The position numbers and the translations under genes were made by a program. From Sedimentisphaerales bacterium (GTDB taxonomy: Bacteria > Planctomycetota > Phycisphaerae > Sedimentisphaerales > SM23-30), in contig JAFGKT010000064.1 in the NCBI GenBank assembly GCA_016928435.1, positions 2,753 to 66,752 of the forward strand: 64,000 bases of DNA, read 5' to 3'. Numbering within the stretch: position 1 is the stretch's first letter; every line of letters begins with the position of its first letter. This document shows positions 10,177-49,744 of the stretch, piece by piece. The notes under the pieces are model-generated. The model ran no database searches, was not told the origin of the DNA, and saw only the letters and a program-made list of their open reading frames with translations.

Positions 10177-11187
10177 ATGAGCAAGCGTGACTACTATGAG
10201 GTTTTGGGGGTCAGCCGTGACGCCTCGCCGGAGGAGATCAAGAAGAGCTATAGGAAGTTGGCACGGAAGTATCATCCGGATGTAGCAGGGAAAGATCCCA
10301 AGGCGGCGGCTCAATTCAAGGAAGTTAAGGACGCGTATGATGTGTTGAAGGACAAGAAGTCGCGTGCTTCTTATGATCGGTTCGGCCATGCAGCGGAGCA
10401 TATGGGGGGTTGGTCCGGCGGCGGCGGAGAAGGAGGAGGCGGTTTTGGTGGTCAAGGTTTCGATTTTTCGGATATTTTTGGCGGCATGAGGGGTGGTCGC
10501 GGCGGTCGGCGGAGTAATGTCAAGATTAACCTGGGCGATTTGTTTGGCGGCATGGGCGGCGGTGGTGATGAAGATGAGGTTTTCGAGCGTTTGCGCGCGC
10601 AAGGCGGCGGGGCTCGAAGGCGTGGTGAAGATCTAGAACATAAAGTGCGCATTGGTTTTGAAGAAGCGATTCATGGTTCTACGCGTGATGTGGTTTTGAC
10701 CATGCCTCAAGCGGACGGCAGTCGTAAGCAAGAACATTTGAGTGTTAAGATTCCAGCGGGAGTGGATACCGGGAGCAAGATTCGGGTTCGGGGCAAGGGT
10801 CAGCCGGGTATGGGCGGAGACAATGGTGATTTGATCATCAAGGTTGTGGTAGGTGAGCATCCGTATTTTAGGCGGGACGGAGATCGGATAGATTTGGATG
10901 TTCCGGTGACTTTAGCGGAAGCGACGCTGGGCGCTAAGGTGGACGTTCCGACATTGACGGGGATGACGACGGTTACGATACCGCCTGGCAGCAGCGGCGG
11001 AAGCAAATTGCGGTTGAAGGGCAAAGGTGTGAAAGACAACAAGACGGGCAAGACGGGTGATATGTATTTGACGTTGAAGGTGGTATTACCACGAGATTTG
11101 GATGCTGAGTCGCGGAAGTTGGTGAAGCAATTTACGGATTTGAATCCTCAGCCGGACGTGCGTGATGGTTGGAAGCGTTCACAGTAA
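10177..11187 (+). CDS. DnaJ-class co-chaperone lacking the zinc finger (CbpA-like)
   Basis: J domain with HPD (RKYHPDVAG), Gly-rich linker and two C-terminal beta domains, but no CxxCxGxG repeats. ATG at 10177 gives [12 protein letters not shown]. The last four codons and the stop lie inside repeat copy A. Confidence 0.85.
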
Positions 11188-11422
11188 AGAGAACCACTAA
11201 TTGACACGAATAGTCACGAATATAGCTGCCATGGGCAGGGAGAAAGCACGAGGCAATAGTCTTGGGTGCAGTGTAGGCGAAAAGGTCAGGGATGTTTAAC
11301 ATCGCGAAAAGACGCGAAACATACGAAAGATAAGCACGAATTGATACGAATGGGCACGAATAAAGCAGCAGGTTGTGAGCGGCTATTGGTATTGATGTAG
11401 GTGCGAGAGCGTGAACGGTTAC
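11173..11422. mobile_element. MITE-like repeat, copy A (no intact target-site duplication seen)
   Basis: Aligns with 16975-17225 and 29075-29300. Left end AAGCGTTCACAG, right end GTGAACGGTTAC (inverted CGTTCAC/GTGAACG). Subterminal CACGAAT/CACTAAT heptamers. Confidence 0.6.
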
Positions 11423-11920
11423 GGAGTTAATTTTCAGGTTAGTTTTGGTATTGATTGTATAAGGGGTTTATTGTTGCGTTGGTGGCTATTGGTGATATTG
11501 CTGTTGGGGATAGCGGGGTGGGCGGCGGCGGATGGCCAGGTAGAAACTGGGGACACACAATCAGTAGTGGAGACCTACGGGTCGGCGGAAATAGAGAGGG
11601 TGGAGGGTTTTGAATTGGGAGGCGAAGTTGTCGCTGACGCATGCACGGTGTTGGATGAAGGTTCGCAGGTTGACGAAGACGCATCGATGGAGGAGAAGCG
11701 AGGGCGGTATAAACTGGCGTTGATGGTAATGCTGTTTGGGATCGCTGGATTGTTTTTGATGTTTTTTCTGGTTACGCTGTTACGGATAAGCAGGTTTCAC
11801 AGGCGGCGTTTGGGTTTGGGGGCTAAGCGAGAGAAGACGCAGTATATTGATGCTTGGAGCAAATATCGCATAAAAGATGGTATGTTGGATGACGACAAGG
11901 GGGAAGATGATGACGGATGA
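11411..11920 (+). CDS. Hypothetical membrane protein (start uncertain)
   Basis: N-terminal hydrophobic LLRWWLLVILLLGIAGWAAA, second TM LALMVMLFGIAGLFLMFFLV, acidic tail. The track GTG start lies inside the repeat terminus, so the real start is probably downstream. The 3' end overlaps the rnpA start. Confidence 0.4.
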   Translation: MNGYGVNFQVSFGIDCIRGLLLRWWLLVILLLGIAGWAAADGQVETGDTQSVVETYGSAEIERVEGFELGGEVVADACTVLDEGSQVDEDASMEEKRGRYKLALMVMLFGIAGLFLMFFLVTLLRISRFHRRRLGLGAKREKTQYIDAWSKYRIKDGMLDDDKGEDDDG

Positions 11921-15552: not shown

Positions 15553-16965
15553 ATGCATACGCTATTTTTATGTTGGCGATACTTACGGAAGCGTCGGATA
15601 GTTTGGTTTCCGATTGTTGCGGTGATGCTTTGTGTGGCGTTATTGATAGTGGTTACGAGTTTGTTTGACGGTTTTGTGGCGAAGTATTTGGAGTCTCAAC
15701 AGCGATTTTTTGGGGAGATCACTCTGACGCCGCCACGTGCGATGACGGGTTATGTGGACTTGGCGGACCGTTTGAGTGCATTGCCGGAGGTAGCGGTAGC
15801 CACACCGGTGGCGCGTACGGGTGGGTTGTTGTATTTAGGTCGAGGTGATGTTCGTGGGGTACAGCTTTTAGGGATTGATTTGGCGGCGCGCTGTCAGGAT
15901 GAAGAATTCGCGGCGGGTTTGGTCTTGCAGAAAGACGCATCGGAGCCGAGTTTTGCGCTGCCTGAGGCGGTGCGGGAGCGTGCGCGATCTTGGCTGGAAC
16001 GCAAGTTGCGGCGTGAAGTTGCGGATGATGACTTACCTACGGGTGCGATCTTGGGCATTGGGGTTTTGGTTGAGCCGGACGATTTGACGGATGCGTATGA
16101 TGTTGAGGAGATTCGTGATTTGCTGGCGGATCGTTCGACGGGTATGAGTATAACCGCTGGTCGGATAGTCGATGGTGCAGACGGTCGCAGCGCGGTTCGC
16201 CGGACGGGTGTATGTTGGCCGGTGGATGTGGTGGAAACAGGATTAGATGAAGCTGACACAAGTCATGTATATTTACCCTTTGACTACGTGGCGGATTTAA
16301 TAGGGACAAGTGAATGGGGAAAGCCATCCTGTATTGCTCAGATACATATAACCTTAGCGGAGGGTTATTCTCGGGGTGAGGTAATACAAAAGGTTCGCGC
16401 GGCATGGCAGATTTTTGCGCGAGAAAACTTGGGTTGGGATACAATTTGGGCGAATATGGTGGTGATAGAATCACAGGATGAGAGCCGTTGGGCGAAATTG
16501 TTAACGTATGAAATCCAGAAGCAATTAAGAGTTATGCAAATGATTTTGGGTTTGATTTGTTTAGTTGTTATTGTGTTGGTGTTTGTGGTGCTGTTTATGA
16601 TAGTTTTGCAGCGGCGGCGTGATATAGGGATTGTGCGCAGTGTTGGTTCATCGCGTTGGGGAGTGGCGATGGTTTTTATCGGTTATGGCGGCGCGATAGG
16701 TTTGGTTGGCGCGGTTTTGGGATTGATCTTAGGAGCATGGGCAACTAAGAATATTACGATGTTAGAAGGTGTATTGACACGCATTTTGGGTTTCAAGGTT
16801 TGGCGCAGCGGTGTTTATATGCTCCGTGAGATACCGAATGAAATATCCTGGGGTGCGGTATGGTGGATTATGTTGGCGGGTGTTTTGGCGGCGGTGGTTG
16901 GCGCGTTACTGCCGGCGGTGAAAGCGGCACGGATGCAGCCGGCTTCGGCTTTGCGTTACGAATAA
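15553..16965 (+). CDS. ABC transporter permease, FtsX/MacB (LolC/E-like) family
   Basis: N-terminal LCWRYLRKRR TM1, large periplasmic loop, C-terminal 3-TM FtsX domain ending AARMQPASALRYE. ATG at 15553 (track TTG 15544). Confidence 0.85.
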   Translation: MHTLFLCWRYLRKRRIVWFPIVAVMLCVALLIVVTSLFDGFVAKYLESQQRFFGEITLTPPRAMTGYVDLADRLSALPEVAVATPVARTGGLLYLGRGDVRGVQLLGIDLAARCQDEEFAAGLVLQKDASEPSFALPEAVRERARSWLERKLRREVADDDLPTGAILGIGVLVEPDDLTDAYDVEEIRDLLADRSTGMSITAGRIVDGADGRSAVRRTGVCWPVDVVETGLDEADTSHVYLPFDYVADLIGTSEWGKPSCIAQIHITLAEGYSRGEVIQKVRAAWQIFARENLGWDTIWANMVVIESQDESRWAKLLTYEIQKQLRVMQMILGLICLVVIVLVFVVLFMIVLQRRRDIGIVRSVGSSRWGVAMVFIGYGGAIGLVGAVLGLILGAWATKNITMLEGVLTRILGFKVWRSGVYMLREIPNEISWGAVWWIMLAGVLAAVVGALLPAVKAARMQPASALRYE

Positions 16966-16974
16966 TGTGTTATG

Positions 16975-17225
16975 GTAACCGTTCACTGTAAAATGAACCA
17001 CGAATAGACACTACTATTCACTAATTAAGATTTAGCTGCCAGGGGCGAAAGCGAAGGAATAGTTGGTTAGTTGGGAGTATAATTGGAAAAGAAGGTCAGG
17101 AAATTATAAGTTGCGGATGACACGGATGATTGCGGATTCTTTTGTTTGGGATCGTAAATTTACGAATGGACACGAATAAATAGATTGAGTTGGTTGATTT
17201 GTGGGTGCGATCGCATGAACGGTTA
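16975..17225. mobile_element. MITE-like repeat, copy B, flanked by 9-bp direct repeat TGTGTTATG
   Basis: TSD at 16966-16974 and 17226-17234. Termini TAACCGTTCA / TGAACGGTTA are inverted (10/10). Lies between the stop of permease 1 and the ATG of permease 2. Confidence 0.75.
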
Positions 17226-26212: not shown

Positions 26213-27358
26213 TTAAGATTGCGCGGGACGGGAGCGGACGAGTTTGAGCATGACGATGATGGTGATGAGGCAGATAACAGCTAGGATGGCAAAAGCGATG
26301 ATAGCGGAATTATGATTTTGTACTTGCCAACCGGTGGTGGAGTTTGGGTTGTAGATATCTAGATTGCCTGCGATGTCGCGAGAGAGATAATAAGTGCGTA
26401 TGTGTTGACGTACGATTAGATTTCCGGCGAGGCTGAGGGCGGTCAGAATGGTGGTGATGGCCAGGGAGAAGCGGCCGGCGGCTTTGAATGCGGCGACGAT
26501 GCCGGTCAGTAGAGCTAGGCCGATCAGAAACAGAGAAGCGTACCAAATTATGGATATGGAATTTGAGGTATGAAGGAGTTGGGATTGCAGGGGCTTCGGT
26601 AAGGTTTGGAGATACCAGATGGTAAAGGCGATTTGCAGAGGGAGGCCAAGGAAGAAGTATTGCAGGCCGATGCGCGTGGCGTGGCGGTTGATGTTAGTTT
26701 GAGTGAGTTGGGAATCAGGGGCGGGTTTGGATCGGCTTAGCCAAGCCCAGGCTAGTCCGCCCAAGGTGATAATGATGGCGAGATTATGCAGCAATCTTGG
26801 GCCTACGATGGGGTCGGGAACGTGCAGGGCGGAGGTGTGGCGATGAAACTCGATCCAGTGTTCCGGTTGGATGGTGAGTACGGAATTATTGGTCATGATG
26901 TAAAGGATGGCGATGAATGCCAGGGGCATGAGCAATGTGCAAATGAAACCGATTAGGCTTTGCTTGAGGCGAGCGAGATAGGTGCTGATGAATCCGATGA
27001 GCAGCAGGGCGAGTACGGCTAGCCAAAACGGGGCGATGAAGATAGAAGCGGTATAGAACCACGGTCCGTACAGGCATTGGGTAAAAAGCAATGGCGCGAC
27101 GCCGAAGTTGATGGCCAAGGAAATACACAACGGCAAGGAACGGAGCGCGCGGCTGTTTATTTGTCGGTCGATTTCGGAGCGATTACGCAGAAGCAAGCAG
27201 CGCAATAGGAGGATGCAAGATATTCCGACAACGGCGCTGACGAAGATTAGGTGAATCCAGAAGGTTATGGTGGAGAGAGTTACCAGCAGCCACGCAGGAG
27301 CGGGCAGAGCGAGATGTTGGTAGGCTGGGATGTGAGGGGCGGCGGCAGCAGCTATCAT
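26213..27358 (-). CDS. Polytopic membrane protein (possible partner subunit of the bd-like oxidoreductase)
   Basis: About 9-10 hydrophobic segments. Its start overlaps the upstream gene stop by 4 nt (27355-27358). No family motif recognised. Confidence 0.6.
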   Translation of the reverse strand: MIAAAAAPHIPAYQHLALPAPAWLLVTLSTITFWIHLIFVSAVVGISCILLLRCLLLRNRSEIDRQINSRALRSLPLCISLAINFGVAPLLFTQCLYGPWFYTASIFIAPFWLAVLALLLIGFISTYLARLKQSLIGFICTLLMPLAFIAILYIMTNNSVLTIQPEHWIEFHRHTSALHVPDPIVGPRLLHNLAIIITLGGLAWAWLSRSKPAPDSQLTQTNINRHATRIGLQYFFLGLPLQIAFTIWYLQTLPKPLQSQLLHTSNSISIIWYASLFLIGLALLTGIVAAFKAAGRFSLAITTILTALSLAGNLIVRQHIRTYYLSRDIAGNLDIYNPNSTTGWQVQNHNSAIIAFAILAVICLITIIVMLKLVRSRPAQS

Positions 27359-28998
27359 GGCAACGGCTCCCAGTTATCTTTTGCGGTGATGGGTAAGAGG
27401 TTGACACGGTTGGCTTGGTCGTCGAGTGTTTCATGGCAGCGTGAGCATTGGCCGTCGAGGGTGTGCATGAAGTAAGCGAGATCGTCACGGTCGTTGGGTG
27501 AGCCGAAGAATGGGGGCATAAAACCGCGGAAGCTTTCGAGGTGTTCGAGCGAACGGGCGAGCATGGTTGGGGTCCAGTTACGGACGAGTGGTTTGATGGC
27601 GTTGTAGCCATCGAAATCGTGGCAGCGGAGGCATTGGGCGTTGTAAATCCATTGGCCGCGGATTGCTTGGCCGGTGCGATGCTGACGAAGCAGGTTGGCG
27701 AATATCAAGGGGTCTTGAGTGTAGAACTCGGCCTCGCTAATGGTGAACTCAGCGAGATGGGCGCCTTGACGATCGAGAGGCAGTTGCGCGACGGTCAGGC
27801 CCAGCTCCAGGGCGATAGCTTGCGGATCGGTGACGATGGGGATGTTTACATCGATGGGGTTTATGGCCCAGGGATGGAATCGCAGTACGGTGTCGTTGGG
27901 GACGGGGCCGGTATAGGGCAGATCGCGGAGTTGGGCGATGGTGGCTTCACGACGTATGGGTTGCTGGGCGGTGAGAGTGTCGCGTATGGCAGGTGCTTGG
28001 GATTTGAGTATGCCGTTGCTGTAAACGTGATTCCAGATGAGGTAAGGTTTGCGCATTCCTTCGCGAACGAATTCGGATGCGCCGGTGGCGATAAATGCCA
28101 AGATTAGCAGCAGCAACGCGGTGCCAAGTGTTACGGAATGTTTGCGGACAATAATGAAGGTGTAGCTATAGAAAGCGATGAGGGTGAAACCTACCAGAGC
28201 GAAGGCGAAGAGCAGTCCCATTACGACGGAGCCGCCGGTAAGATAGGATAACGACAAAGGCGGGCAGCGGAAAAAGTACCATACGGCGGCGGGTATAGCC
28301 AGGACAAGCGGCAGAAGGGCTTTGCCAGCCAGTTGGGTTAGGCGATCACGTTCGGCGGGGGTGTATTTACGGGAAGCGTTGATAAGAACCAAGGCAAAAA
28401 GTGCGCCGAGAGTGAGAGCGCTGATGGTGCGAAGGATAAGCGAAGGCCAATAGGCTGGGTTGAACAATCCGGGCCAGAAAGAGAATGTGAAAGGGGTGGT
28501 GGATGAATCGAAGATGTGGCCAGGGGTTATCATGAAAGTCAATATGCCGTTGATTACCACCAGCGAGAGGAAAGCGGACACGGCGTACACCCAGCCGATG
28601 AAACAATGAGCTCGGGGCGAAATGGTTTTCCAAGTGTAGTAATAGAGATATCCGGAAATGATTTCGACGGTGAACAAGAGCCATTCGAGGGCCCAGGCCC
28701 AGAGGAACAGGTGGATGAGTATGGAGGTGGTTTCGGGACTGACGATAGAGATGGAAAACCAGATGCCTACGCCGGTGACTACACCGCCGATCAGAGGAAG
28801 CAATATGATTAGTTTGCTGTTATCGCGGAGAAATTTTTGGATAGCGGTGTCGTTGTGTCTGAGGGCGTGGGTTTCGGCGATGGCGTTGAACAGTCCGGCC
28901 CCCACAGCGAAGTGCGCTATGAACACATGGACGATGGCGATCGAGGCGATGACCATCGCGCCTCCGAAATAAGGCAGATACCAAATAGGATAATCCAT
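27355..28998 (-). CDS. Cytochrome bd-type (CydA-like) membrane subunit fused to a C-terminal dihaem cytochrome c domain
   Basis: The N-terminus (IAIVHVFIAHFAVGAGLF ... WAWALEWLLFTVE) resembles CydA helices. Two CxxCH motifs: CLRCH (27619-27633) and CSRCH (27433-27447). Confidence 0.7.
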   Translation of the reverse strand: MDYPIWYLPYFGGAMVIASIAIVHVFIAHFAVGAGLFNAIAETHALRHNDTAIQKFLRDNSKLIILLPLIGGVVTGVGIWFSISIVSPETTSILIHLFLWAWALEWLLFTVEIISGYLYYYTWKTISPRAHCFIGWVYAVSAFLSLVVINGILTFMITPGHIFDSSTTPFTFSFWPGLFNPAYWPSLILRTISALTLGALFALVLINASRKYTPAERDRLTQLAGKALLPLVLAIPAAVWYFFRCPPLSLSYLTGGSVVMGLLFAFALVGFTLIAFYSYTFIIVRKHSVTLGTALLLLILAFIATGASEFVREGMRKPYLIWNHVYSNGILKSQAPAIRDTLTAQQPIRREATIAQLRDLPYTGPVPNDTVLRFHPWAINPIDVNIPIVTDPQAIALELGLTVAQLPLDRQGAHLAEFTISEAEFYTQDPLIFANLLRQHRTGQAIRGQWIYNAQCLRCHDFDGYNAIKPLVRNWTPTMLARSLEHLESFRGFMPPFFGSPNDRDDLAYFMHTLDGQCSRCHETLDDQANRVNLLPITAKDNWEPLP

Positions 28999-29074
28999 AA
29001 CAGCGTTCCTCAGAAGCGTTTATAAATCGCCTCATAGGATGCCGGAAAACAGGGCGGTTGTCAAGGGTTTAGAT

Positions 29075-29300
29075 AAGCGTTCACAGCAAAGAGAACCACT
29101 AATTGACACTAATATTCACTAATATAGCTGCCAGGGGCATGATAACGGCAAAAGTGGTTAGTCGGTGAGCATAAGGAAACAGATAGCTCAGAGAATAATT
29201 AACCACAAAAGAACGCGAAAGATAAACACAAATAGCTAAGAATAGGCACGAATAAAGGCATTATTGATTCATTAGCGGTTGCTAGAGCGTGAACGGTACT
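29075..29300. mobile_element. MITE-like repeat, copy C, flanked by 9-bp direct repeat GGTTTAGAT
   Basis: TSD at 29066-29074 and 29301-29309. Ends AAGCGTTCAC / GTGAACGGTACT. Three CACTAAT heptamers near the left end. Confidence 0.75.
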
Positions 29301-29561
29301 GGTTTAGATTTCTTTAAGGGGACAGGGGTTTGCTGGTCGGCATAATCGATACATTCGTTACATTACTCAAGGTCGGGCAGGTGAGTTCAGGGAAAATGGT
29401 TGAGATTTTTGAAGTCGCGTTGCCGGGAGGGTATTTGAATATTATGTTTAAGGCAGTTAGTGAGGCATTTGAGTTGATTGAGTCATGGTGGGGTGACTTT
29501 GGTTTAGGGCAGGGAGGCCTAGATTTGTCCTATTATTTTGGACAGCGAAGGATCCAGGGTT

Positions 29562-34687: not shown

Positions 34688-34740
34688 AGGGAACCGCGTG
34701 GGTAACTTTGAACATCTTGTTCAAAATTACCCACCCTACC
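34688..34740. repeat. Palindromic repeat element, copy 1 (37-nt hairpin core)
   Basis: GGGAACCGCGTGGGTAACTTTGAACA-TCT-TGTTCAAAATTACCCACCCTACC. Arms pair 16/17. Second copy at 35852-35902. Confidence 0.7.
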
Positions 34741-35761: not shown

Positions 35762-35851
35762 GGTGCGAATCGCACAGATAGATTTATTGACGATCGACGG
35801 TTGGGCTATGGTGTTTCTGCTGGTTGTTGCAACAGTTGGGGCGATTGATCA

Positions 35852-35902
35852 GGGAACCGCGTGGGTAACATTGAACAAGATGTTCAAAATTACACACCCT
35901 AC
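35852..35902. repeat. Palindromic repeat element, copy 2
   Basis: GGGAACCGCGTGGGTAACATTGAACA-AGA-TGTTCAAAATTACACACCCTACC. Same orientation as copy 1, but the 3-nt loop is complemented (TCT versus AGA). Confidence 0.7.
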
Positions 35903-36314
35903 CGGTTTGATTGGGGGGTGGGAATAAGTTTTTTTGGCCCGGTTTTATATTATCGGACGTTGGGGGTGGTGTAATCGTTACAGAGTGACTTGGACTGGTT
36001 TTAGGGGGCGTGCGGATGGGATAAGATGCGGGGTTAATTTGCATCTCGGGGGTTTATATTTTAGATTACAGATGAGAGATATACCTACTTAGGTATGGTT
36101 TCTTTGGCATGCCCTTACGGAGGCATTTCGACGCTGGGCAGAATCTACGTCGAATGTTGCTGATCCCCTAGAAGAAATACAGTAGAAGCGGCGCGCGCTT
36201 AGCGCCGTCGGCGGACGGTCTCTATCGCATGGATTGATGGTTGGTTTTGGATCCCGACTATTGACTTAGTGCATATAGAGATGGGATTCGTCATTAGAAA
36301 TACATAGCGCCCTA

Positions 36315-40680: not shown

Positions 40681-43266
40681 TTACTTATCGAAGGTGAAGC
40701 TGTGTGCTTGGGCGTCGATTTTTACGGTGTCGCCGTCGGTGTATTGGCCGGCCAGGATTTTTTGGGCGAGGGGGTTTTCCAATTTTTGCTGAATGGTGCG
40801 TTTTAATGGCCGGGCGCCATAGGAGACGTCGTAGCCTTCTTCGAGGAGCATGTCTTTAGCGGCATCGGATATTTGCAGTTGCAGGTGTTTTTGTGCCATT
40901 CGTTTTTGCAGATAGCCCAGTTGTATGTCCACGATTTTGCGCAGTTGTTCTTGGCCGAGCGGATGGAAGACGATGGTTTCGTCCACACGGTTAAGGAACT
41001 CCGGGCGGAAGAATTGTTTGAGTACATCTTTGACATGGGCTTCGATTTCCCAGTCGGCTCCTTTTTCTTCGCGGAGTTTTTGGATTTGGGCGCCGGCGAT
41101 ATTGCTGGTCATGATGATAAGGGTGTTTTTGAAGTCGACGGTTCGGCCGTGGCCGTCGGTCAATCGGCCGTCGTCCAGCACTTGCAGCAAAACATTAAAT
41201 ACATCGCGATGGGCTTTTTCAATTTCGTCGAGTAAGATTACGCTATATGGTTTGCGTCTGATAGCTTCGGTGAGTCGGCCGCCTTCTTCGTAGCCGATGT
41301 ATCCGGGAGGCGCGCCAATCAACCGGGCGACGCTGTGTGGTTCCATGAACTCACTCATGTCGATACGCACCATGGCGTTTTCGTCGTTAAATAAGAATTC
41401 CGCCAGGGCACGGCTGAGTTCGGTTTTGCCTACGCCGGTCGGGCCTAAGAAGATGAAGCTGCCCATCGGTCGATTAGGATCGCCCAGTCCGGCCCGAGCG
41501 CGACGTATAGCATTGCTTACGGCTTGGACGGCTTCTTCTTGGCCGACGACTCGCTTGGATATCTCCGTTTCCATGTGCAGCAGTTTTTCCATTTCACCGG
41601 TGAGTAGTTTGCTAACCGGTATGCCGGTCCATTTAGCGACGACATGGGCGATTTCATCTGGGGTGACTTCTTCTTTGACCAGGCTGTTGCCGTTATGTTG
41701 CTGAGCGGCTTTTTCTTGAGCTTGTTCAAGATTTTTTTGTAACTCCGCGATTGTGCCATAACGCAACCTCGCTGCGGTTTCCAAGTCGCCGCGGCGCTGG
41801 GCTTCTTCTAGTTCGCGTTGAGCTGTGTCAATTTGTTCTTGGATGTTCTTAGCTTCTTTGAGCAGACCGGTTTCGGCTTCCCAACGGGCCGTCAAGGCGT
41901 GGTCCTGTTCTTCCAGGTCAGCTAACTGTTCTTGCAGTTTTGCCAACCTTTGTTTGGATGCTTTGTCAGTTTCTTTTTTGAGTGCTTCGCGTTCGATTTG
42001 CAGTTGCATTATTCGACGGCGCAGCTCATCGAGTTCACTGGGCAGCGAATCGTTTTCGATGCGCAAACGCGAGGCGGCTTCGTCGATGAGGTCGATAGCT
42101 TTGTCAGGCATGAATCGGTCAGCGATATAGCGATTGCTCAGGGTTGCCGCGGCGACCAAGGCGCTGTCGGTGATACGCACACCGTGATGAATGTCGTAGC
42201 GTTGTTTTAATCCGCGTAATATCGCGATGGTGTCTTCGACGGAAGGTTCATCAATAAGAATCGGTTGGAAGCGTCGTTCCAGGGCGGCGTCTTTTTCGAT
42301 GTATTTACGATATTCGTCCAGAGTGGTGGCGCCGATACATCGCAGTTGTCCGCGCGCCAGGGCGGGCTTGAGCAGGTTGCCCGCATCGACGGCGCCTTCG
42401 GCTTTGCCGGTACCGACTACCAAGTGCAGTTCGTCAACAAATAGAATGATCTGGCCATCGGAATCGGTGACTTCTTTAAGCACAGCTTTGAGACGGTCTT
42501 CGAATTCGCCGCGAAACTTTGCGCCCGCAATCAAAGCGCCCATATCCAAACCGATAACCCGTTTGTCTTTTAAGCCCGCGGGCACATCGCCGTTAACAAT
42601 ACGTTGGGCGAGACCTTCGACGATAGCGGTTTTACCTACACCTGGTTCACCGATCAGGACAGGGTTGTTTTTGGTACGCCGGCCTAGCACCTGCATGCAA
42701 CGGCGGATTTCCTCATCGCGACCGATGACCGGGTCGAGTTTGCCTTTGCGGGCTAGTTCGATCAGATCGATGCCGTACTTTTCCAGGGTTTGATATTTGT
42801 TTTCGGGATTGGCATCAGTCACTTTTTGTCCGCCGCGAATTTCCTGCAAAGCCGCGAGTACCTCATTGCGATTGACAGCGTTGACTTCAAGCAGTTCCTT
42901 GGCAGGACTGGGTACTTCCAGCAACGCCAACAGAATATGCTCGGTGCTGAGATATTCATCTTTGAGGGTGTCCGCTTCTTTGTTGGCTTGGATCATTACC
43001 TTCTGCAGGGCTGCGTCGCCGGTCAGTTGGCCTGCCCCGCTGACTTGGGGTAAGCGATCCAATTCGTCTTTGGTCATACTGATAATTTGGTCAACATTAC
43101 AGCCGGTTTTGTTCAGTATGGCGGGGACTATACCGCCTTGGGCGTCTTGGAAAAGTCCAGCCAAGACGTGAAGCGGGGTGAGATTGGCGTGGCCGGAGTT
43201 CGTGGCGATTTCCTGGGCGGTGGCCAAGGCTTGCTGAGCTTTGATTGTCATTTTTTCAAATCGCAT
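40681..43266 (-). CDS. clpB: ATP-dependent chaperone ClpB
   Basis: Clp N-domain, NBD1 GEPGVGKT, long middle coiled coil, NBD2 GPTGVGKT, 861 aa. Confidence 0.97.
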
Positions 43267-43391
43267 AATTTATTCCTTTTATATGCTGCTGTCCGTTAGT
43301 GGTTTAGCTGTCGCCGGTGGTGTTATGCAGTTTGGGCCCTTTCGCGTTGGCTGTAACAGGCAATATATTCCACCATACTCAAAGTCTTGTT

Positions 43392-43407
43392 CGCAAATAC
43401 CGTGCCA
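43392..43407 (-). promoter_or_regulatory. Sigma-54 (-24/-12) promoter candidate for clpB
   Basis: The minus strand reads TGGCACGGTATTTGCG, matching TGGCACG-N4-TTGC with exact GG/GC spacing. It lies about 125 nt upstream of the clpB ATG. Confidence 0.65.
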
Positions 43408-43494
43408 TAAAGCGGATGTTTTGTTTAAGTATTTGTGGTAAAAGGCTTTATATTGCAATGGTTTTTGGAGAAGATTTGACGGAGTTTAAAAGTC

Positions 43495-43597
43495 TGCCAT
43501 TGTGGCATGAAATAGGTCCAGTTTGCGGCTGTGGCAGTTGGACTTTATACAGCCTGTCAGGTTGGCACGGACATCTGCCAACATTGCCACAGTGGCA
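43495..43597. promoter_or_regulatory. Cluster of TGCCA/TGGCA palindromes (candidate enhancer-binding-protein sites)
   Basis: TGCCA-TTG-TGGCA (43495-43507), TTGGCA-N8-TGCCAA (43562-43581), TGCCA-CAG-TGGCA (43585-43597). All lie midway between the two sigma-54 promoter candidates. Confidence 0.45.
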
Positions 43598-43697
43598 GGC
43601 TATCCCTGAGGGCGGATGGGTGAGACGATAATTGTCAATAGCGTAAAATGTTTTACAGCAATAGTTTACGATCTAGTACGAAGGTTTGTAGTTTTTC

Positions 43698-43713
43698 TGG
43701 CATTGTCTTTGCT
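43698..43713 (+). promoter_or_regulatory. Sigma-54 (-24/-12) promoter candidate for groEL-groES-groEL
   Basis: TGGCATTGTCTTTGCT matches TGGCAY-N5-TTGCW with exact spacing. It lies about 115 nt upstream of the groEL ATG. Confidence 0.6.
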
Positions 43714-43804
43714 TTGTGTGACGACATAGAGTCGGAGTCTAGCCTGACTCCGTGGCAAAGAATAAATCGGTAGTGACAATTTGAGTTACTTTTAAATCCG
43801 CTAG

Positions 43805-45526
<1,722 letters not shown>

Positions 45527-45627
45527 TAGTTCTTGCCTTAGCGGCCCCTGAGTAAATACCAACTGTAATATAGTTAAGTAGAAGTTTTTACATAAAACCA
45601 GATTTTTAATCATAGGAGTTTAGAAGT

Positions 45628-45918
45628 ATGAAGGTTAAGCCATTAGATGATAGAGTGTTGGTAAAGCAGTGTGATGCCGAGACTAAAACGGCCGGCGGTA
45701 TTGTTCTGCCTGATTCTGCCCAAGAGAAGCCTCAACGCGGCATCGTGCAACAATGCGGCCCGGGCAAAATGCTCGACAGCGGCGAACGTGGCGGCATGAG
45801 TGTCAAAAGTGGCGACGAAGTCTTCTACGGCAAATATGCCGGTACGGAAGTCCAAATCGATCAAGAGACCTACGTTATTCTGCGGGAAAGCGACATTTTG
45901 GCGATCCTGACCAAGTAA
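45628..45918 (+). CDS. groS: Co-chaperonin GroES
   Basis: MKVKPLDDRVLVK ... GDEVFYGKYAGTEV, 96 aa. Confidence 0.96.
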   Translation: MKVKPLDDRVLVKQCDAETKTAGGIVLPDSAQEKPQRGIVQQCGPGKMLDSGERGGMSVKSGDEVFYGKYAGTEVQIDQETYVILRESDILAILTK

Positions 45919-46036
45919 CGGTTATTATCGCAATTAAAGCAAAAACTCTTAAGCCGGTTTGTCGGCGGGGTACAAGATGTGCTGACGTGAAAACGTGACG
46001 CGGATTTGACCCTCAGAGATAGAATGGAGTTATATA

Positions 46037-47647
46037 ATGGCCAAGCAAATGATGTTTGATGATGCCGCCCGAAAAGAAATTCAGGACGGCCTGATGCGGC
46101 TGGCTTCAGCGGTGAAGGTTACGATGGGGCCGACGGGTCGTAACGTGATCCTGCAGAAAAGTTTCGGTTCGCCCCGTGTCACCAAAGATGGTGTTAGTGT
46201 TTCCAAAGAAATCGAACTGCCCGAGCCTTTTGCCAACATGGGCGCGAAAATGGTGAATCAAGTAGCCAGCAAGACCAGTGATGTGGCCGGTGACGGCACA
46301 ACCACGGCTACGGTTCTTGCCGAAGCGATCTACACCGAAGGGCTCAAATATGTTGCCGCGGGTGTAAATCCCATGTCGCTGCAGCGCGGTATTAACAAAG
46401 CTGTCGCGGTGGCGGTAGAGTCAATCGCCAAGCAGAGCAAAAAGGTTAAAGGCAGCGACGATATCGCCAAGGTCGGTGCTATAAGCGCCAATAACGATCC
46501 GCAGATCGGCAAGCTTTTGGCTGAAGCCATGGACAAAGTCGGCAAGCAGGGCGTTATCGAAGTCGAAGAAGGTAAAGGTATCGAGACTGAACTGGAAGTT
46601 GTCGAAGGTATGCAGTTCGACAAAGGTTTTCTGTCGCCTTACTTTATAACCAAGGCCAGCAGTATGGAAGCCGTTCTGGAAGATTGCTATATTCTCATTC
46701 ACGAGAAGAAGATCAGCAATCTGCGGGAGTTGGTTCCGTTGCTGGAAAAAATCGCCGGCTCCGGCAAGCCGTTGTTGATGATTGCTGAGGATGTTGAAGG
46801 CGAAGCCCTGGCGGCTTTGGTTATCAACAAGCTGCGCGGCGTGCTGCACGTTTGTGCGGTTAAAGCTCCCGGCTTTGGTGATCGTCGCAAAGCCATGCTG
46901 GGTGATATCGCGGCGTTAACCGGCGGGCAAATGATCAGCGAAGATCTGGGCTTGAAACTGGAAAACATCGAAATGTCCCAATTGGGCCAAGCTCGTCGTG
47001 TTGTTATCACCAAAGAGAACACCACGATTGTCGATGGTGCCGGTGCCAAGAAAGATATCAAAGCCCGCATCAATCAAATCGAAAGTCAAATTGAAAAAAC
47101 CACCAGCGATTATGATCGTGAGAAACTACAAGAGCGTCTCGCCAAGTTAACCGGCGGCGTTGCTGTTGTAAGAGCCGGTGCTCCAACCGAAACCGCGATG
47201 AAGGAACGCAAGGATCTGTTGGAAGACGCTCTGCATGCAACCCGGGCCGCGACCGAAGAAGGTGTAGTACCTGGCGGCGGCGTGGCGTTGCTGCGGGCGA
47301 TTAAGACGGTTCAGCAGGCGCAAAAGGATATCGTCAACGACGAGAAATTCGGTTTCGAGATCATCGCCAAAGTACTAAAGGCCCCGGCGCGTCAGATTGT
47401 CGAGAATAGTGGTGCCGACGCGGCCATGGTGATTTCAGAGCTGATGGAGAAAACCGGCTCGGCTGGGTATAATGCCGCCAAGGGTGAGTTTGTTGACATG
47501 CTAGAAGCTGGTATTATCGACCCTGCCAAGGTTACCCGCGCTGCTTTGCAGAACGCCGGCAGCGTCGCTGGGCTTATGTTAACAACCAAGGTTCTGATTA
47601 CCGATCTCAAAGATGATGAAGAACCTGTGCAGGGCGCGATTAGCTAA
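46037..47647 (+). CDS. groL: Chaperonin GroEL (copy 2, acidic tail, no GGM repeats)
   Basis: [34 protein letters not shown]. Ends [14 protein letters not shown]. Confidence 0.97.
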
Positions 47648-47942
47648 CATCTAAGTGGAATGTCCGGATGATATTTTCCGGGTTCTGTTTAGATACTGAT
47701 CGTTGCTTGTTGATGAAGTAATTTGACAGCCGTGGTCACGATGTTGGCTCTGTATGATTGCTCGCAAAATGCTATATGATCTAGAATAGCGTTAGCGGGA
47801 CTAAATCAAACAGGCAAGACATCGTGGCCGACGGTGGTTTTTGTTTCGAGAACAATTCTCGATATGCAAACTGAGGCTATGCGACGGCGCAATTTGCCGT
47901 TTTTGGGTCATTGGCCCATAGCTGTTGTTTTGGATGGGCTTT

Positions 47943-49097
47943 ATGGCAGCAACCAAACGCGACTACTATGAAGTGTTGGGCGTTAAACGCGATTCCAGCC
48001 CGGAAGACATCAAACGCGCCTATCGGCGTTTGGCGATGAAATATCATCCGGATCGCAACCCAGACCAGCCCGAATGTGAGCAGAAGTTCAAAGAATGCGC
48101 TGAAGCCTACGAAGTACTCAGCGACTCGCAAAAACGACAGCAGTATGATCGTTTCGGCCATGAAGGACTGCGCGGCAGCGGAATGCACGACTTCTCGCAT
48201 ATGCGCTCCGATGATATCTTCAGCATGTTCGATGATATCCTGGGTGGTGTTTTTGGCGGTGGTCGTCGGCGCGGTGGTCGATCGGGCAACCGTGCGGCTC
48301 GCGGTTATGATATCGAAACCCAAGTCACCATCAGCATGCAAGAAGTACTCAGCGGCGTAGAAAAGCTGCTGGAGTTCAAGCGACGTGATCTTTGCCCGCA
48401 ATGCAAAGGCAGCGGCGCCGAGCCTGGTCATGATCGTGAACCTTGTGCCCAGTGTGGCGGTCAAGGCCAAGTAGCCCAATCAGGTATGGGCGGACTGTTT
48501 CGTATGGTTACCACTTGTCCGCGTTGTAAAGGCGCAGGCAGTGTAGTAACTCATCCGTGCAAAGCATGTCATGGTCAAGGAATGGTCGAGAAAGAGCGTA
48601 AGCTGACTCTCAAGATTCCCGCCGGCATTAGTGACGGACAAGCAGTTCGGGTTACCGGTGAAGGCGAACCCGGCCAGCACGGCGGTCCATCGGGTGATTT
48701 GTATTGCTATGTTAGAGTGAAGGGGCACGATTTTTTGCATCGCGAAGGCGATGACTTGGTAGTGCGTTTGCCGATAAGTTTCAGCCAAGCGGCATTAGGC
48801 GCTACCGTTGAAGTACCTTCTTTGTCCGGTCGGCGCGAAATAGAAATACATCCGGGTACGCAGCATGGCGCGGTGATCGAAGTCAAAGGCCAAGGTTTAC
48901 CCAATATTCGTAGCGGCCGGCGCGGTTCGCTGCTGGTGCAGGTTTTGATCGAGATTCCTAAGAAGCTCAACAAAGAACAGAAGAAGCTGTTGCGGCAATT
49001 TGCCGAGACCGAAGATAAAACTGTATTGCCGGAAAGCAAAGGGTTTTTTGATAAACTCAAAGATTACTTTGCCGGCGAAAGTCACAATTCCAACTAA
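47943..49097 (+). CDS. dnaJ: Molecular chaperone DnaJ (type I, with zinc finger)
   Basis: J domain HPD (KYHPDRNP), G-rich linker, four CxxCxGxG repeats ([32 protein letters not shown]). Confidence 0.96.
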
Positions 49098-49123
49098 ATG
49101 CTTTACGCTGTAAATGAGTTATT

Positions 49124-49744
49124 ATGAGTAGCAAAAAGGATAAAAAAGCGGGTAAGTCAATTCCGATTGAATCTGCGGAAGAATCTATTGATTCAGCTCA
49201 GCCCACAGAGGGTCAGCCGGAATCGCAATCTCCGGAAGTTGTCGAAGAACCAGCGGCTGAGCCTTCGTTAGAACAACAGTATGAGCAGTTGAAAGCGAGA
49301 TATCAACGCCTGGGTGCCGACTACGCCAACTACCAGAAACGCAGTCAGCGCCAGATTGAACAGGCGTCTCAGTTCGCCCAGGAAAGTGTTGTTCGGGCCA
49401 TTTTGCCGGTTCTGGATAATTTTGATCATACTTTGGTTCAGGGCAGCGAGGATATGAATCCCGCGGCAATTCTGCAAGGGGTCCAAATTGTTTACGATCA
49501 TCTGACCAAGACTCTCAGCGGTTTTGGTATGGAGCGGGTGGCAGTCAAAGTGGGTACTGATTTTGACCCCACCATTCACGAAGCGGTTCTACATGAAGAA
49601 AGCGCTGAATTGGAGCCTAACCAAGTTGTCCGCGAGTTAGCTGCCGGTTACACAATGAACGAACGTACGATTCGTCCAGCCAAAGTTTCCGTTGCCAAGG
49701 CGCCCAGTGAACCGCAGACCGAAGAAGAAACGACGGAAGAATAA
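49124..49744 (+). CDS. grpE: Nucleotide exchange factor GrpE
   Basis: Coiled-coil region followed by the GrpE beta domain (VVRELAAGYTMNERTIRPAKVSV). Follows dnaJ. Confidence 0.9.
   Translation: MSSKKDKKAGKSIPIESAEESIDSAQPTEGQPESQSPEVVEEPAAEPSLEQQYEQLKARYQRLGADYANYQKRSQRQIEQASQFAQESVVRAILPVLDNFDHTLVQGSEDMNPAAILQGVQIVYDHLTKTLSGFGMERVAVKVGTDFDPTIHEAVLHEESAELEPNQVVRELAAGYTMNERTIRPAKVSVAKAPSEPQTEEETTEE

Follow-up and report, generated by a model that had tools for sequence, protein, structure and literature searches.

At positions 10177 to 11187 of the window, by which is meant the whole 64-kb stretch of DNA that was analysed, lies a gene for a CbpA-type DnaJ protein. It is followed by a segment of 250 bp, then by the gene for a small conserved membrane protein, and then by rnpA and yidD. 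The segment is one of three in the window that align with one another from end to end. The second sits between two FtsX/LolE-type permease genes of one operon, with an ABC ATPase gene following the permease pair, and the third lies in the divergent spacer that precedes a cytochrome bd-like gene on the minus strand (27355-28998). All three lie on the plus strand, in each case in the orientation of the downstream gene. The genes and segments concerned are as follows.

10177 to 11187, plus strand: CbpA-type DnaJ gene, with J domain and DnaJ_C and no zinc finger, starting at ATG 10177
11173 to 11422, plus strand: copy A of the element, 250 bp (alignment, profile match)
11471 to 11920, plus strand: small conserved membrane-protein gene downstream of copy A, likely start at TTG 11471 or 11474
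16975 to 17224, plus strand: copy B of the element, 250 bp (alignment, profile match)
29075 to 29300, plus strand: copy C of the element, 226 bp (alignment, profile match)

The end-to-end alignment, first proposed in a sequence-only reading of this DNA, is real. Mean column identity is 72% across the three aligned copies, which are mutually 64-70% identical over their whole length. A profile built from them recovers exactly these three from the window (E 3e-70 to 2e-66) and detects no fourth copy in the 64 kb, the next-best match having an E value of 0.38. The limits given earlier for copies A and C hold, while copy B ends at 17224 and not at 17225 once the duplication that flanks it is excluded. 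Copies A and B are found, identical, on a 12-kb contig of run SRR13394437, and the DnaJ protein has a 100% identical counterpart in a metagenome-assembled genome named Sedimentisphaerales bacterium (Phycisphaerae, Planctomycetota). The copies have a GC content of 0.40-0.47, against 0.51 for the window. No open reading frame is conserved when A, B and C are compared, and no copy can encode a transposase. Miniature inverted-repeat elements (MITEs) range from about 50 to 600 bp (PMC6382973), and at 250, 250 and 226 bp, with no transposase gene, the three copies fall within that range. The description of the family as undescribed agrees with the absence of any match in Rfam 15 or in the literature searched.

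Each of the three copies is bounded by a 12-bp imperfect terminal inverted repeat, (G/A)TAA(C/G)CGTTCAC ... GTGAACGGTTAC, which contains the inverted termini CGTTCAC and GTGAACG recognised previously. The left end reads AA(G/C)CGTTCAC...GAACCAC and the right end GTGAACGGT. The GAACCAC head stands 8-9 bases inside the left end and is followed by three CAC(G/T)AAT heptamers, spaced at exactly 10 nt, and then by a 14-nt core, TAGCTGCCA.GGGC, found at 11223 in copy A, 17033 in copy B and 29125 in copy C. Some 65 poorly conserved nucleotides separate the core from a second array of five or six units, which has the same orientation as the first and a phase of about 10 nt, and which includes variant units (CGCGAAA in copy A, CGGAT-type in copy B). 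Its last unit, GGCACGAATAAA, is present near the right end of the copies. Every shared feature listed in the sequence-only reading is present, and the same-orientation heptamers indeed form two clusters per copy at 10-nt spacing. The individual parts are located as follows.

11171 to 11182, plus strand: left terminal inverted repeat of copy A, GGAAGCGTTCAC
11191 to 11221, plus strand: left heptamer array of copy A, with GAACCAC head and units at 11195, 11205 and 11215
11223 to 11236, plus strand: conserved core of copy A, TAGCTGCCATGGGC
11303 to 11361, plus strand: right array of copy A (CGCGAAA twice, TACGAAA, CACGAAT, TACGAAT, CACGAAT)
11411 to 11422, plus strand: right terminal inverted repeat of copy A, GTGAACGGTTAC
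16995 to 17025, plus strand: left array of copy B
17112 to 17177, plus strand: right array of copy B, three CGGAT-type units (17112-17137), then TACGAAT and CACGAAT
29093 to 29123, plus strand: left array of copy C, three CACTAAT units
29204 to 29253, plus strand: right array of copy C, oriented as the left array, degenerate

Within the window no three-unit array occurs outside copies A-C. A longer inverted repeat of about 50 bp was also considered and rejected: similarity between the ends beyond 12 bp was matched by 173, 236 and 40 of 1000 shuffles for A, B and C, respectively, and is thus not significant in A and B and marginal in C. The window holds another small repeat, unrelated to the heptamer element, in the form of two 53-nt copies (34688-34740 and 35851-35903) that are 91% identical and stand on either side of an amidohydrolase gene, just before a flagellin gene; each forms a 37-nt palindrome of its own, GTGGGTAAC..TTGAACA..TGTTCAA..TTACCCAC.

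Copy A is fused to the gene on its left. The DnaJ protein ends in D-G-W-K-R-S-Q-stop, and its last four codons and TAA are element bases 11173-11187, which align with non-coding bases in copies B and C. The proposal that copy A supplies K-R-S-Q-stop is therefore sound. It had also been claimed that the insertion replaced the native 3' end of the gene. A replacement did take place, and what it affected can be judged from 16 homologues, in which the conserved end NPQxDxRxxW is followed in most cases by 0-3 variable residues; the tail that was exchanged is therefore trivial and dispensable. On the right flank of copy A, GG-AGT-TAA could be a remnant of an original ...W-S-stop. The host sequence immediately to the left of the element (11159-11172), GCGTGATGGTTGG, codes for V-R-D-G-W and resembles the element's right end, GCGTGAACGGTTACGG (11409-11424). 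The CbpA-type protein is a second J-protein encoded here, since a canonical zinc-finger dnaJ is present in a chaperone cluster at 40684-49741. The cluster also comprises clpB on the minus strand, grpE, groES and two groEL paralogues, the first of which ends in a GGM-type repeat (45440-45520).

On the other side of copy A, the downstream reading frame had been taken to start inside the right terminus. This is true of the longest possible frame, which opens at GTG 11411, and not of the likely start. The frame is homologous to a 138-residue protein of the related locus L157 (E 5e-8), and an AAGGGG motif stands directly before TTG 11471/11474, where a hydrophobic N-terminus begins. On the basis of the L157 homologue and the AAGGGG motif, the gene probably starts at one of these two codons, outside the element.

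Evidence of how the segments reached their present positions comes from their flanks. Copy B is bordered by a perfect 10-bp direct repeat, ATGTGTTATG, and copy C by a perfect 9-bp direct repeat, GGTTTAGAT; neither had been noted in the sequence-only reading.

16965 to 16974, plus strand: left 10-bp duplication of copy B, ATGTGTTATG, beginning with the final base of the upstream stop codon
17225 to 17234, plus strand: right 10-bp duplication of copy B, containing the ATG (17232) of the downstream permease gene
29066 to 29074, plus strand: left 9-bp duplication of copy C, GGTTTAGAT
29301 to 29309, plus strand: right 9-bp duplication of copy C

The frequency of such repeats was estimated from 200,000 random site pairs drawn from the window, with offsets of 0-8 nt from either anchor. 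Repeats of at least 10 bp arose with a frequency of 3e-4 per site and those of at least 9 bp with a frequency of 8.7e-4. The last two bases of each repeat can alternatively be read as element ends, which would reduce the duplications to 8 and 7 bp; the argument for insertion is unaffected by this choice and stands. At copy A a search of the flanks detected no target-site duplication, in agreement with the earlier remark that it has no intact one.

At site B the original sequence can be rebuilt. One duplication holds the stop codon of the upstream gene, the other the ATG of the downstream gene. Removal of copy B with one repeat gives ...TACGAATAA-TGTGTT-ATGTATAAATTATTATTAATCTGG, in which six bases separate the stop codon from the start codon. 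Copy B thus sits in what is otherwise a 6-nt spacer between the permease genes. The site is empty in all three relatives compared (L158, L159 and L160), where the permease spacer measures 9-62 nt (11 nt in L158, 9 nt in L159 and 62 nt in L160) as opposed to 266 nt here. In L158, whose permease is 75% identical, the junction reads TAA-11 nt-ATGTATAAGTTATTATTAATCTGG, where ATGTATAAGTTATTATTAATCTGG is the start of the downstream gene, and matches the site rebuilt without copy B.

In two of the three relatives compared, site A is empty, the spacer measuring 30 nt in L157 and 67 nt in L155; gene order in L157 is that of the window (flgM, dnaJ, small ORF, rnpA, yidD, mgtE, rplM, rpsI). In the third, L156, the DnaJ gene (protein 58% identical) is followed by a spacer of 254 nt (10382-10635). 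An exact TGAACGGTTACG, the 12-mer of the window element's right terminus, lies near the 3' end of this spacer, the rest of which shows weak similarity to the element with a profile score that is not significant (nhmmer E 3.3). The L156 spacer may be a decayed copy of the element at the same site, or may reflect an old or repeated insertion. Gene order around site C is not conserved in the relatives, which precludes a comparison there. No arrays were found in approximately 90 kb of sequence from relatives. Rather than carrying the same sequence at the same sites, as the sequence-only reading had envisaged for DNA that is not mobile, relatives are empty at five loci corresponding to sites A and B. 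MITE-like mobility is thus supported by the duplications at B and C, by empty orthologous sites and by related elements in the planctomycete genome AUK119, which are described below.

The likely origin of the three segments, in our judgement, is the insertion of a MITE of 226-250 bp, a DNA transposon that is not autonomous. Its transposase would be encoded elsewhere in the genome, and would cut the target with a stagger of 9-10 bp and join the element ends to it. The CAC(G/T)AAT heptamers, phased at 10 nt and so all on one face of the helix, would be its predicted binding sites, and the requirements in cis for movement would reside in the sharply conserved parts of the element, namely the termini, the left array, the TAGCTGCCAGGGGC core and the last unit GGCACGAATAAA. 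The duplications are perfect, yet the copies differ from one another by 30-36%, which implies that the source elements had already diverged. Consequences for the host appear mild, amounting to a swap of the DnaJ tail at copy A and an intra-operon insertion at copy B. The orientation shared by the copies would fit one that permits transcription to pass, although, the copies being three in number, chance may account for it.

An enzyme that could mobilise the element was sought at several levels. Neither the window ORFs tested, nor the AUK119 locus (L017), nor the surroundings of arrays yielded a transposase, and a longer element sharing these termini did not turn up in the window, at the AUK119 locus or near arrays. 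Pfam families were surveyed in 197 ORFs lying no more than 300 nt from an array, among the matches listed, and none was a transposase; the ORFs between array pairs among the same matches contained none. Among these matches, array pairs 0.6-4 kb apart were seen in L154 alone, a phage head module.

The ends of IS21, Tn7 and Mu carry several subterminal transposase-binding repeats, mirrored at both ends. Short repeats just inside the terminal repeats, bound by transposase, also occur in the MITE Emigrant with Lemi1 (PMC1636448), and the heptamer arrays of the window element resemble them in position. In Emigrant/Lemi1 the repeats are mirrored, whereas the second array of the window element is a direct one. 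Mirrored arrays of the Emigrant, IS21, Tn7 and Mu kind are found only in the AUK119 relatives, and binding here is a prediction. The second array in the same orientation is contrary to what mirrored transposase sites would predict.

The closest parallel as regards the element as a whole is MITEAba12 of Acinetobacter (PMC6382973), which is likewise small, non-coding, bounded by terminal inverted repeats and AT-richer than its host. Some copies of MITEAba12 (40%) have 9-bp target duplications, and it too can fuse to neighbouring genes and so alter gene ends (PMC6382973). Its copies are nearly identical and its 16-bp repeats match those of the parent ISAba12 (PMC6382973), whereas the window copies are 64-70% identical and have 12-bp repeats for which no parent was found. 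The 12-bp repeat is also shorter than the 15-30 bp quoted for MITE terminal inverted repeats (PMC3733652). Unlike MITEAba12, the window element has an interior with two same-orientation phased heptamer arrays.

It is these arrays that connect the element to sequences elsewhere. Whole-element copies, searched for by an exact pattern of left array and core, gave no matches in the genome collection, and an exact pattern of terminus and array head gave none in metagenomes. The terminus pattern matched the genome collection 19 times, about the number expected by chance, and was real only in L017, from the Planctomycetota metagenome-assembled genome AUK119. Here, two elements of about 190-235 bp lie between unrelated genes. 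They carry the terminus and a three-unit array at both ends, in inverted orientation, and have no flanking duplications. As far as sequence comparison can tell, these two elements, with arrays inverted at both ends, are the closest relatives of the window element. Their layout is a classical one, and the presence of terminus and array at both of their ends shows that the combination is a conserved end structure.

The array alone is far more widespread. The pattern GAACCACKAATNNACACNAATNNNCAC matched 14 viral contigs and at least 120 from metagenomes, where a rough estimate from the number of specified bases predicts a few matches or fewer per collection by chance. Among the matches listed, the consensus is GAACCACGAAT-GR-ACACGAAT-NN-ACACGAAT, and the positions that the pattern leaves unspecified show a strong bias, the third unit being CACGAAT in 77-99% and the spacers mostly G and A. 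Variant heptamers include CACTAAT, CACAGAT and CACGGAT. The contigs among these matches range in GC content from 30% to 67%. Arrays are mostly arranged as inverted pairs beside ordinary genes, single arrays also being common among the matches listed, and a tolerant detector identified at least 56 elements with inverted arrays on both sides, 70-500 bp apart. Comparison of copies shows that array families differ in the 5-25 nt of terminal sequence outside the arrays. No duplications of at least 6 bp were found around the widespread pairs, nor any of 2-5 bp at the array edge. A BLAST search with the array consensus found no match in phage and plasmid collections, where the low-complexity filter may mask such a query. 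The motif has no match in Rfam and no description in the literature searched, and no description of the array was found in literature on GxxExxY/PDDEXK_3 or on MITEs or palindromes of Planctomycetes and Verrucomicrobia.

Several arrangements recur among these matches. The number of units varies, reaching six or more in L045 and L147 (L023 and L067 are further cases), and direct copies of the array occur in tandem about 85-540 nt apart, in L038 (4764 and 5306) with identical flanks; this suggests that arrays may arise by local duplication or slippage. In L066 (4238-4564) and L080 (8431-8761) the arrangement is nested, with an outer CACGAAT array pair enclosing an inner CACAGAT pair; the element is common to the two loci and the flanks are different. 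In the related viral contigs L154 (3483-3509 and 6558-6584), L141 and L143, arrays are located between portal, MuF-like and SUKH-family genes of a head-morphogenesis module, and each adjoins a second, outward-facing array remnant. Array neighbours are ordinary genes of many kinds, the sole recurrent small family being the GxxExxY PD-(D/E)XK nuclease (TIGR04256, PDDEXK_3), at no fewer than five loci. It adjoins an array in L042 (105-482), L044 (156-605) and L059 (283-729), as well as in L030 and L118; in L044 the nuclease gene lies between two inverted arrays, and several of the nuclease reading frames begin within the array (M-D-T-N-E/T-H...). Other open reading frames run through arrays (L033, L077, L090, L094 and L125), giving the recurrent peptides IRVHSWF, IRVHSCPFVV and PRMDTNGHEW, and such read-through frames are likely to appear in annotations as spurious or extended "hypothetical proteins".

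At variable positions, the two arms of an array pair are barely more alike (0.60) than after random re-pairing (0.53), which indicates that the constraint acts on the units and not on base pairing, and so favours recognition of the DNA by a protein. Together with the 10-nt spacing, which places all units on one helix face, this leads us to infer that the phased heptamers are binding sites of the mobilising protein. This inference is weakened by the direct second array and by arrays elsewhere that lack duplications, since the existence of array-bearing elements without duplications means that arrays may not be a transposition signal at all.

The main alternative is accordingly one in which the arrays are cargo. 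They would be sites for a DNA-binding protein of the host or of phages, such as a regulator, a nucleoid protein or a partition-like protein, and the termini would merely carry the module. This is possible, though we hold it with considerable reserve. It would account for the exact 10-nt phasing, for the constraint on units instead of pairing, for the occurrence of arrays elsewhere without duplications or a transposase, and for the spread of the array, with its biased free positions, over contigs with GC contents of 0.30-0.67, of which 14 are viral and at least 120 come from metagenomes. Single arrays, moreover, show a modest bias toward the orientation of the flanking gene (103 vs 64 among the matches listed). 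However, no candidate protein is found among the array neighbours in these matches, the neighbours being unrelated housekeeping genes, and relatives are without arrays at the same sites, so that the host genes evidently do not need them.

The layout of the widespread array pairs recalls that of REP and REPIN sequences, which are dispersed in intergenic regions, singly or in inverted pairs, in many phyla including the PVC group (PMC3733652). The elements might then belong to a class of this kind, moving as single-stranded hairpins under the action of an HUH-type (RAYT-like) enzyme or another that does not make staggered cuts. The 56 or more inverted array pairs, 70-500 bp apart, could indeed form hairpins, single arrays are common too, and the pairs elsewhere lack flanking duplications, as do REPs, which are defined as 20-40-bp palindromes tagged GTAG or CGTC (PMC3733652). 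The window copies, by contrast, make 9-10-bp duplications at B and C and have ends without a GTAG or CGTC tag, a distinction that follows from the definition in PMC3733652. The arrays consist of 10-nt units in tandem behind a GAACCAC head, are not palindromes themselves and do not keep their arms complementary, and among the matches listed no HUH gene adjoins an array. A REP-like origin is therefore improbable.

Less probable still is that the segments are small-RNA genes or a shared 5' leader whose CACGAAU repeats bind an RNA-binding protein. Each copy shares the orientation of the gene that follows it, the fold of copy A is somewhat better than those of its shuffled versions (z = -2.7), and a local hairpin can be drawn in the right halves of A and B. 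Most half-element folds, however, are no better than those of shuffles, and the consensus fold has a penalising covariation term of +2.67, the terminal stem alone being shared. The elements have no match in Rfam 15 at the gathering threshold or even at E <= 1, and the array hairpins gave either nothing or generic hairpin (microRNA precursor) matches alone. Scans for sigma-70 promoters and intrinsic terminators within the elements were negative, the downstream genes are functionally unrelated, and exact 10-nt phasing suits double-stranded DNA better than RNA.

That the segments are conserved, non-mobile regulatory DNA, duplicated together with gene promoters, is scarcely credible: the right-terminus 12-mer does recur in the equivalent spacer of one relative (L156), but duplications flank copies B and C, five relative loci are empty and copy B lies within a 6-nt intra-operon spacer. 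An integron attC site was also considered and rejected, as the ends CGTTCAC / GTGAACG do not follow RYYYAAC / GTTRRRY and the neighbours (rnpA, rplM, rpsI and a lolE-like gene) are core genes and not cassettes.

The MITE interpretation thus stands for the three window copies, which constitute a previously unlisted family that is ordinary in kind. The genome itself is little affected: its core loci hold three elements, old-looking but cleanly inserted, one altering the tail of a protein and another interrupting an operon. The more interesting result is the widespread array module on which the element is built, which is common in environmental bacteria and phages and extends outside the coordinates considered in the sequence-only reading. 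We suggest, tentatively, that the array marks a large and as yet undescribed superfamily of small elements, mobile or bound by protein, distributed across several phyla of bacteria and their phages and recognised by one conserved protein. Should this be the case, the window MITE would be one branch with its own added 12-bp termini, and the PD-(D/E)XK GxxExxY genes that start in arrays could belong to the system. An almost invariant 31-nt motif common, among the matches listed, to contigs of 30%-67% GC and to phage contigs implies a conserved, still unnamed partner protein, which would explain a common intergenic feature in poorly studied phyla (Planctomycetota and probably others). It would also provide a marker for mis-annotated open reading frames that run through the repeats.
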